From NCBI RefSeq assembly GCF_030013205.1, contig NZ_CP122648.1: 64,000 nucleotides of DNA. One strand, written 5' to 3'. Source of the DNA: Escherichia coli (lineage in GTDB: Bacteria; Pseudomonadota; Gammaproteobacteria; Enterobacterales; Enterobacteriaceae). The translations under genes were made by a program, and so were the position numbers. The notes below the pieces were generated by a model, which was not told the origin of the DNA, searched no databases, and saw only the letters and a list, made by a program, of their open reading frames with translations. Shown here piece by piece: positions 6,430 through 6,519 of the stretch (the stretch's first letter is position 1; each line of letters starts with the position of its first letter).

Positions 6430-6519
6430 TCAATCAGAAAGGCGATCCATAAGAACAATAGCAAGACAATAAATTGCCACTACAGCCGCAATAGCCAGCG
6501 CGCATTTGAGAACCAGCAC
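6430..6519 (-). CDS. small hydrophobic peptide ORF (29 aa: VLVLKCALAIAAVVAIYCLAIVLMDRLSD), GTG start
   Basis: AGGAGG five nt upstream of GTG; single predicted TM helix; 70 bp downstream of the SIR2-like gene on the same strand. Below the 60-aa cutoff of the ORF track. Confidence 0.3.
   Translation of the reverse strand: MLVLKCALAIAAVVAIYCLAIVLMDRLSD

Follow-up and report, generated by a model that had tools for sequence, protein, structure and literature searches.

Directly downstream of a SIR2-like gene in the Escherichia coli contig NZ_CP122648.1 there is a 29-codon open reading frame (ORF) that starts with GTG and would encode a hydrophobic peptide. The stretch analyzed, referred to here as the window, is 64,000 nucleotides (nt) long, and the small ORF is located near one end of it. 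Two questions are raised by this locus. Is so short a frame a gene at all and, if it is, does it belong with the SIR2-like gene that precedes it or with something else? In the original prediction the peptide was likened to small membrane toxins such as Hok, Ldr, Ibs, and TisB, and either a two-gene module with the SIR2-like gene or an independent small toxin was suggested. In this report, we find it likely that the small ORF is a genuine gene and that its product is a 29-residue inner-membrane peptide with one membrane-spanning segment. The gene constitutes an orphan family of Escherichia and Shigella and is found in the block that flanks hokD/sok in Qin/Rac-like lambdoid prophages, at the edge of a cargo hotspot.

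Coding constraint on the small ORF

6519..6430, minus strand: the small ORF, with GTG at 6519..6517, 29 codons, and TGA at 6432..6430; the product is a peptide with one predicted transmembrane (TM) segment, MLVLKCALAIAAVVAIYCLAIVLMDRLSD
6530..6525, minus strand: Shine-Dalgarno (SD) sequence AGGAGG, separated from the GTG by the 5-nt spacer TTATC

The frame and the perfect AGGAGG five nt ahead of it were read on the minus strand as claimed. The stop codon of the SIR2-like gene (6592..6590) lies 70 nt before the GTG, which confirms the position directly downstream. The product of the small ORF is fMet-LVLKCALAIAAVVAIYCLAIVLMDRLSD. The grand average of hydropathy (GRAVY) of the window copy was determined to be 1.90 and the highest 19-residue average 2.84; the corresponding ranges were 1.8–1.9 and 2.7–2.8. 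These values fit with the single TM helix that had been predicted. The charges are K5 toward the N-terminus and D25, R26, and D29 at the C-terminus.

AGGAGG occurs at 10 sites when both strands of the whole window are counted, and a start codon follows 4–9 nt on in five of these. The site ahead of the small ORF is the sole one that leads an ORF of 20–60 residues. Block shuffles of the sequence yielded a mean of 2.2 SD-led ORFs of this length, none of them with a GRAVY greater than 1.5.

The constraint on the frame was determined with 131 copies for which flanking sequence was available. These were collected by a pattern scan of IMG/VR and from annotated loci, most of them via a pattern in the last 8 codons, and the codon test was restricted to codons 2–21, which lie outside the retrieval pattern. 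The small ORF is intact in 119 of the 131 copies, with 29 codons and an unchanged stop position. The lack of conservation across homologous loci that the original prediction named among the grounds for abandoning it was not encountered. The intact copies start with GTG in 118 cases and ATG in one, and comprise 32 distinct nucleotide sequences. In the remaining copies, about 12 in number, the 5' part has been swapped at recombination junctions or the frame is shifted.

Within codons 2–21 there are 37 variant alleles, which are divided 12/5/20 over codon positions 1, 2, and 3. Of these, 21 are synonymous against 11.6 expected from the observed mix of transitions and transversions (Monte Carlo P ~ 1e-4), and the other two frames give only 10 and 5 synonymous changes. 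The pairwise ratio of nonsynonymous to synonymous polymorphism (pN/pS) is 0.26 for the small ORF. Nucleotide diversity at codon positions 1, 2, and 3 was found to be 0.070, 0.023, and 0.117, respectively; the values for the 5' untranslated region (UTR) and for the SD with its spacer are 0.169 and 0.159. Indels are present in both flanks and never inside the small ORF; the sole indel near the start, in strain DEC5A, falls between the SD and the GTG. The amino acid exchanges are conservative with respect to hydrophobicity (T, V, or S in place of A; I in place of V; V or I in place of M; G or F in place of C), and the SD is AGGAGG, AGGAGA, or GGGAGG in nearly all lineages. The most diverged copies remain open. 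These are the form on the plasmid pINV, which differs at 18 of 90 nt and starts with ATG, and that of strain C10 (79% identity), where an 11-nt deletion takes out the stop codon and lengthens the ORF to 35 codons.

The codon-position pattern, the pN/pS ratio, the indel-free frame, and the open diverged copies together lead us to conclude that the small ORF is under purifying selection and is probably translated. Judged by this pattern of substitution, it is a conserved protein-coding gene, and the single-helix peptide of the original prediction is the product of a genuine small gene.

Neighborhood and distribution of the small ORF

6408..6572, minus strand: conserved 165-nt block, consisting of part of the promoter, the 5' UTR, the small ORF, and the start of the hok promoter
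6590..7621, minus strand (6590..7549 in the annotation of the Prokaryotic Genome Annotation Pipeline, PGAP): SIR2-like gene; PF13289 SIR2_2, 26 bits, and weak PADLOC SIR2 matches
6422..6394, minus strand: hok promoter, TTGGCG, 17 nt, TAGAAT (consensus scan)
6387..6220, minus strand: hok mRNA leader and sok (Rfam RF01794), 109 bits against a gathering threshold of 59, matching the full-length model
6274, minus strand: ATG start codon of mok
5131..6225, plus strand: insertion sequence (IS) of the IS481 family, 1,095 bp, with the 6-bp target duplication TCTCCT at 5125–5130 and 6226–6231
4961..5116, minus strand: hokD toxin ORF, 51 residues, split by the IS from its promoter, leader, and mok

The block was compared, with 6408–6589 as the query, to 5,426 complete E. 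coli genomes. It was matched in 2,509 of them, with coverage of at least 80% in 1,846 and identities of 83–100%. The homology always ended at 6572, and none of the matches was annotated at that spot. The SIR2 cassette is present in 45 of the same genomes (29 at 99% identity or more, and about 16 at 86%) and was not found in phage records. The block occurs in the absence of SIR2 in phages Tritos, Evi, mEp460, and HannyBb, and a tblastn search of phages returned nothing beyond these four.

Inspection of nine further loci demonstrated that hokD always comes after the block and that the gene on the other side is variable, being an MFS transporter, hypothetical genes, a restriction endonuclease, QueH, another SIR2 with a deaminase and a nucleoside triphosphate (NTP) pyrophosphatase, or DUF977. 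The check that had been proposed, a search for small ORFs after SIR2-like genes in other prophages, therefore revealed an association with hokD and a varied cargo. Since the block is found in approximately 1,850 genomes and the cassette in 45, and since the neighbors on the cargo side vary, the small ORF is the constant flank of the hotspot and the neighbor of hokD, not the partner of SIR2. The proposed two-gene module is not sustained by these counts; the gene upstream changes from locus to locus and hokD is constant. The SIR2-like gene is variable cargo and has no conserved partnership with the small ORF.

The hotspot can be delimited as the interval from DUF977, which is at the position of ren, to the small-ORF block (6573–7989 of the window). 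Two SIR2 cassettes that are unrelated to each other were seen in this interval, one of them accompanied by an adenosine deaminase and an NTP pyrophosphatase. Its other contents are a restriction endonuclease, QueH, methyltransferases, an MFS transporter, and hypothetical genes.

For 109 intact copies there was enough downstream sequence to establish what follows the small ORF. The hok leader and ORF are present in 87 of these, and the leader is accompanied by a disrupted hok in 6, as in the window. The remaining 16, which belong to two diverged lineages, are without any hok and are followed by a DUF1971 gene in convergent orientation. The small ORF is in turn lacking at many hok loci, hokW of phage 933W among them, and in K-12 both the hok leader and the small ORF are missing, since relBE abuts hokD there. 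From the stop codon of the small ORF to the −35 box of the hok promoter there are 8 nt, and to the hok transcription start (+1) 43 nt.

The window contains a Qin/Rac-type lambdoid prophage. The order on the minus strand is dicA/dicC-type repressors, a YdaT-like gene, an O-like replication gene, DUF977, SIR2, the small ORF, the IS481-family element, hokD, a DUF968 gene, RusA, and Q. The segment 6270–6407 matches the annotated sokW/mokW region of phage 933W. By comparison with the uninterrupted locus of phage Tritos, the IS was placed inside the SD of hok, and the hok/sok element is cut at 6225/6226. The element is annotated by PGAP as an IS481 family transposase and contains rve and helix-turn-helix domains. 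The sok side (6220–6387) looks intact despite the insertion. The transposase ORF extends from 5188 to 6261, and its last 12 codons must derive from the hok leader flank, because the IS itself is without an in-frame stop codon. Strain C10 (locus ~1980–2200) carries ISEsa1, an IS1202-like element, at the start codon of hokD, which is an independent second inactivation of hok; with the two insertions taken together, knock-out of the hok locus by IS elements seems to be recurrent. Just past hokD, at 4871–4952 on the minus strand, there is a subthreshold Rfam match to isrK (30.5 bits against a gathering threshold of 50). isrK is an Hfq-binding small RNA of Salmonella prophages.

The form on pINV was found in 143 plasmid records, of which 124 are from Shigella, with all four Shigella species represented. 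In the enteroinvasive E. coli strain VL46 (locus 1900–2200), the ATG-start ORF and its promoter, together with what is left of the hok promoter and leader, precede icsP by approximately 300 nt and are oriented like it. They sit in the icsP-ospZ intergenic region, and the hok ORF itself has been lost. The icsP-ospZ intergenic region is known for its control by H-NS and VirB.

Among 100,044 species-representative genomes, the small ORF was found in E. albertii and in two fragments of E. coli phages that appear under other species. The latter are contigs of 2.6–3 kb from metagenome-assembled genomes (assigned by GTDB to Haemophilus and Candidatus Scatousia) that are 94% identical to phage Tritos over the hokD/small-ORF region, and they are probably the result of binning contamination. 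A large protein homology search, for which a public 42-residue miscalled version of the peptide served as the query, returned relatives from Escherichia or Shigella in every case, and none of these has a Pfam domain.

The description of the small ORF as unannotated held for RefSeq, where neither the identical locus nor any other copy inspected is called by PGAP, and did not hold for GenBank and UniRef, where the exact peptide is on record. In E. coli K_EC180, whose locus is identical, the space from the SIR2 gene to the next feature is empty in the PGAP annotation. The peptide and its variants are already public as "hypothetical protein", "membrane protein", or "putative membrane protein", from sources that include E. 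coli B REL606, BL21, and the type strain of E. albertii. The UniRef entry for the pINV form covers 542 contigs, and an entry named "MULTISPECIES: hypothetical protein [Enterobacteriaceae]" covers 650. The longer public versions, of 30–73 residues, are miscalls from upstream starts that read through the SD. Neither the peptide nor an ORF upstream of hokD was found in any searchable paper, including a 2025–26 survey of Hok loci.

Expression signals and proposed function

6562..6557, minus strand: −10 box CATATT of a putative sigma70-like promoter of the small ORF, invariant in diverged lineages
6585..6580, minus strand: −35 slot, which reads ATGCGA in the window (3 of 6 matches) and is usually TTGAAT, TTGAAG, or TTGAGT

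In the diverged lineages, the region upstream of the small ORF reads TTGAAT, TTGAAG, or TTGAGT, followed by exactly 17 nt of divergent sequence and CATATT. Of 63 distinct copies, 50 have this promoter-like site with 37 nt between the end of the −10 box and the start codon; under the identical rule the hok promoter is recovered in 52 of 63. The promoter of the small ORF is a putative one, recognized by its match to the consensus, and the transcription start is predicted at approximately 6550–6552. In the window the −35 slot reads ATGCGA because DNA of the SIR2 cassette replaces the usual box, the homology ending at 6572/6573. The suggestion that the small ORF is an independent unit fits with the promoter-like site in most copies and with the persistence of the small ORF both without hok and without SIR2.

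Co-transcription with the SIR2-like gene had also been put forward. No terminator was detected between the two genes in the window by the consensus scan. Strain C10 carries the 86% SIR2 allele, and its order is the SIR2 stop codon, a stem-loop whose 10-bp stem is perfectly paired (z = −3.2), the complete promoter, and the small ORF. Relative to C10, the window has a clean 100-nt deletion after the SIR2 stop, which was placed by exact string matching of 6573–6592 of the window with 2400–2520 of the C10 locus and which removes the 3' arm of the stem-loop together with the −35 box. The lineage with this deletion includes O55:H7, swine enterotoxigenic E. coli, and the type strain of E. albertii. 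Given the missing terminator and the loss of the hairpin arm and −35 box, co-transcription with SIR2 is likely in this lineage. That part of the suggestion is plausible for the window; it would be a derived, secondary state, and most copies have a promoter-like site of their own.

No terminator of the small ORF's own was found between it and the +1 of hok. Read-through of the transcript from the small ORF into hok is for this reason likely, as predicted from the sequence. Two hairpins were considered and set aside. The one after the ORF in the hok-less loci was rejected as its terminator (z = +0.5 on that strand); it is more likely to act for the convergent DUF1971 gene. The other, within the ORF, resembles a terminator but was judged a weak consensus match in coding sequence.

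Two further observations were made on the 5' region. A motif, (G)TACGTC(C/A)A, at 6533–6540 of the window is kept in all diverged lineages, although nothing else in the block varies as much as the remainder of the 5' UTR; the motif is not accounted for by RNA structure or covariation. In E. coli B (BL21 locus 2001–2135), DUF977 runs straight into the block and the small ORF has no promoter of its own. The annotated DUF977 gene shares its 3' end, in a different frame, with the first ~13 codons of the ORF.

From these features we infer promoter use, membrane topology, and a biological role as follows. In most copies the small ORF would be a small transcription unit of its own, with a weak sigma70-type promoter, a 5' UTR of ~30 nt, and a GTG start behind a strong SD. 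It may be expressed constitutively at a low level in lysogens, in the manner of a moron, and by read-through from the early-right operon of the phage during lytic growth. In the window, the 100-nt deletion appears to have brought the SIR2 cassette, at its 3' end, directly up against the promoter spacer, and this copy is most likely expressed by read-through from SIR2, aided by a crippled hybrid promoter. The peptide is expected to insert into the inner membrane so that K5 faces the cytoplasm and the acidic tail, L-M-D/E-R/H-L-S-D, is exposed outside. Because small residues are repeated at a small-xxx-small spacing (A7/A11/A15), helix–helix contacts may be its mode of action. It probably modulates a membrane function of relevance to the prophage or the host and is probably not a tightly locked killer toxin. 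The role that we consider most likely is that of a low-level moron product of the prophage, which would act in the inner membrane.

Several points weigh against this interpretation. The host range is narrow, being Escherichia and Shigella only, and none of the analyses conducted here points to a biological role or a partner. The small ORF is dispensable, since ~9% of the copies are 5'-replaced or frameshifted. The C10 lineage has lost the stop codon and has many exchanges between A and V, with a pN/pS estimated by hand at ~0.7. The ORF is just 90 nt in length, and the copies are phylogenetically nonindependent and lean to close relatives. The promoter is weak, with 8 of 12 consensus matches, and was missed by a stricter scan. 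Finally, K-12 is without the locus; the standard ribosome-profiling sets are silent on the small ORF for that reason, and its transcription and translation are predicted from the sequence.

Alternative explanations and known systems

The best surviving alternative is that the peptide is a type I-like membrane toxin that depolarizes or permeabilizes the inner membrane, is held in check by an unrecognized antisense or trans-acting RNA or by low expression, and is arranged in tandem with hok. We consider this unlikely. The size, hydrophobicity, and charge layout are within the range of known small toxins. The small ORF also adjoins a genuine type I system, in a prophage region that is rich in toxin and defense cargo, and in the window there is an antisense promoter-like site at its 3' end (TTAACT, 18 nt, TAAAAT; 6401–6430, plus strand). 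Of 63 distinct copies, just 19 have this site. The Rfam search showed no family over the small ORF, and the sok match is confined to 6220–6387. The fold of the predicted mRNA is not out of the ordinary (z = −0.68), the SD is unpaired in the centroid fold, and no overlapping upstream frame of the mok type was found. In the hok-less copies the common sequence ends ~12 nt past the stop codon, so that an antitoxin gene would not fit alongside. The pairing of a strong SD with a promoter that looks constitutive is unusual for a potent toxin; a membrane protein that is made at a low level and tolerated by the cell is a better match than a potent killer.

The kinship with Hok, Ldr, Ibs, and TisB that had been suggested was looked for directly. 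Searches of Pfam (including Hok_Gef, PF01848), NCBIfam, and PHROGs with the peptide at E ≤ 10 gave zero relevant matches, a sequence search of the PDB gave none, and BLASTP against the neighboring HokD at E ≤ 100 produced no alignment. With all of these searches empty, a relation to Hok or to another known small toxin was rejected. Apart from size and hydrophobicity, the hallmarks of a type I toxin were looked for in the sequence and not found; the peptide is at most a candidate toxin.

A bolder proposal, which we regard as improbable, is that the peptide represents a small membrane effector of a novel type, acting in concert with Hok or with prophage defense. It might be, for example, a second membrane-active toxin without an antisense RNA, or a modulator of pore formation by Hok, in either case with a transcript that runs into hok and couples the expression of the two. 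If this is true, the hokD loci of Escherichia prophages would be three-component systems composed of the peptide, hok/mok, and sok, and not type I systems of the classical form. Any action of the peptide on the membrane or on Hok would, if true, add a component to a textbook toxin–antitoxin system.

Still less probable, in our estimation, is that the small ORF acts in cis on hok and that the peptide is a by-product. In such a scheme, transcription from upstream or translation of the ORF would occlude or feed the hok promoter, or extend the hok mRNA at its 5' end. The stop codon 8 nt before the hok −35 box, the missing terminator before +1 at 43 nt, and the presence of hok after 87 of 109 intact copies are consistent with this idea, as is the 11-nt deletion in C10, which joins the end of the ORF to the hok −35 region and leaves the ORF open. 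The selection, however, is on amino acids (pN/pS of 0.26, with codon position 2 the most conserved), which is needless for a role of the act of transcription or translation. In addition, the ORF is intact in the two hok-less lineages, next to the hok remnant of pINV, and in the window with its IS-severed hok, and many hok loci, 933W hokW among them, function as counterexamples in that they are without the ORF. A purely cis-regulatory role is thus disfavored by the peptide-level selection and the hok-less copies.

That the peptide is the membrane effector or anchor of a two-gene defense module with SIR2 is very improbable. The genes are adjacent, 70 nt apart on the same strand without a detected terminator in the window, and the arrangement recurs in 29 genomes and in the type strain of E. 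albertii. The cassette is nevertheless found in 45 genomes against ~1,850 for the block, whose homology extends to 6572 also where phages and genomes have no SIR2, and unrelated cargo is found in the identical slot; the C10 allele has a strong hairpin and the ORF's own promoter between the two genes, and the juxtaposition in the window is a secondary deletion. It is equally hard to credit that the small ORF is a chance, untranslated frame within a conserved noncoding element (a recombination-homology flank, the region upstream of the hok promoter, or an RNA), as might be supposed from its shortness, the failure of PGAP ever to call it, the conservation of the whole block and not of the ORF alone, and the weak terminator-like hairpin inside it, since three-base periodicity and synonymous excess occur in this frame only, there are zero indels in 90 nt with indels in both flanks, the SD and start codon are conserved (GTG becoming ATG on pINV), and the RNA structure is not significant.

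The favored reading, that of a conserved gene for a small inner-membrane peptide beside hokD, has several consequences. The gene is present in about one-third of sequenced E. coli, on the pINV of all four Shigella species, and in B strains (BL21 and REL606); it has been skipped by RefSeq annotation and is not known to have been studied. The hokD locus has a conserved, selected neighbor that was overlooked by surveys of Hok loci. The block is the fixed edge of a hotspot in which defense-type cargo (SIR2, restriction enzymes, and others) is swapped and can serve as a practical anchor for finding such cargo. The tempting reading of the peptide as a part of a SIR2 defense system is corrected.

Surveys of small proteins cover single-pass membrane proteins such as AcrZ, MgtS, KdpF, and CydX. 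The peptide described here resembles this class in having fewer than 50 residues, one hydrophobic helix, and its own SD, and in being missed by automatic annotation and found via conservation of the frame. It differs in that it is unrelated in sequence, prophage-borne, and restricted to Escherichia. With Hok/Gef it shares the character of a hydrophobic membrane peptide, the same 600 bp and strand, and a distribution of charges that is broadly like that of the N-terminal helix of Hok. The peptide is, however, 29 residues long rather than ~50, lacks the C-terminal periplasmic part, and is unmatched by Pfam and BLASTP, and its ORF is without a mok-type overlapping frame, a conserved antisense promoter, or a folded leader. 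The toxins Ibs, Ldr, TisB, ShoB, ZorO, and DinQ (~20–35 residues) are similar in size and hydrophobicity; no homology to them and no signal of an adjacent or overlapping antitoxin RNA was found, and the SD is free in an unstructured mRNA.

Phage morons are independently transcribed accessory genes inserted in prophage operons. The small ORF is like them in being a small unit with its own promoter-like site, positioned among the early-operon genes of a lambdoid prophage beside accessory cargo (hok/sok and defense-type genes), and in being present or absent independently of the core phage genes. It is unlike them in that it has no clear terminator of its own, and the transcription of most copies would continue into hok.

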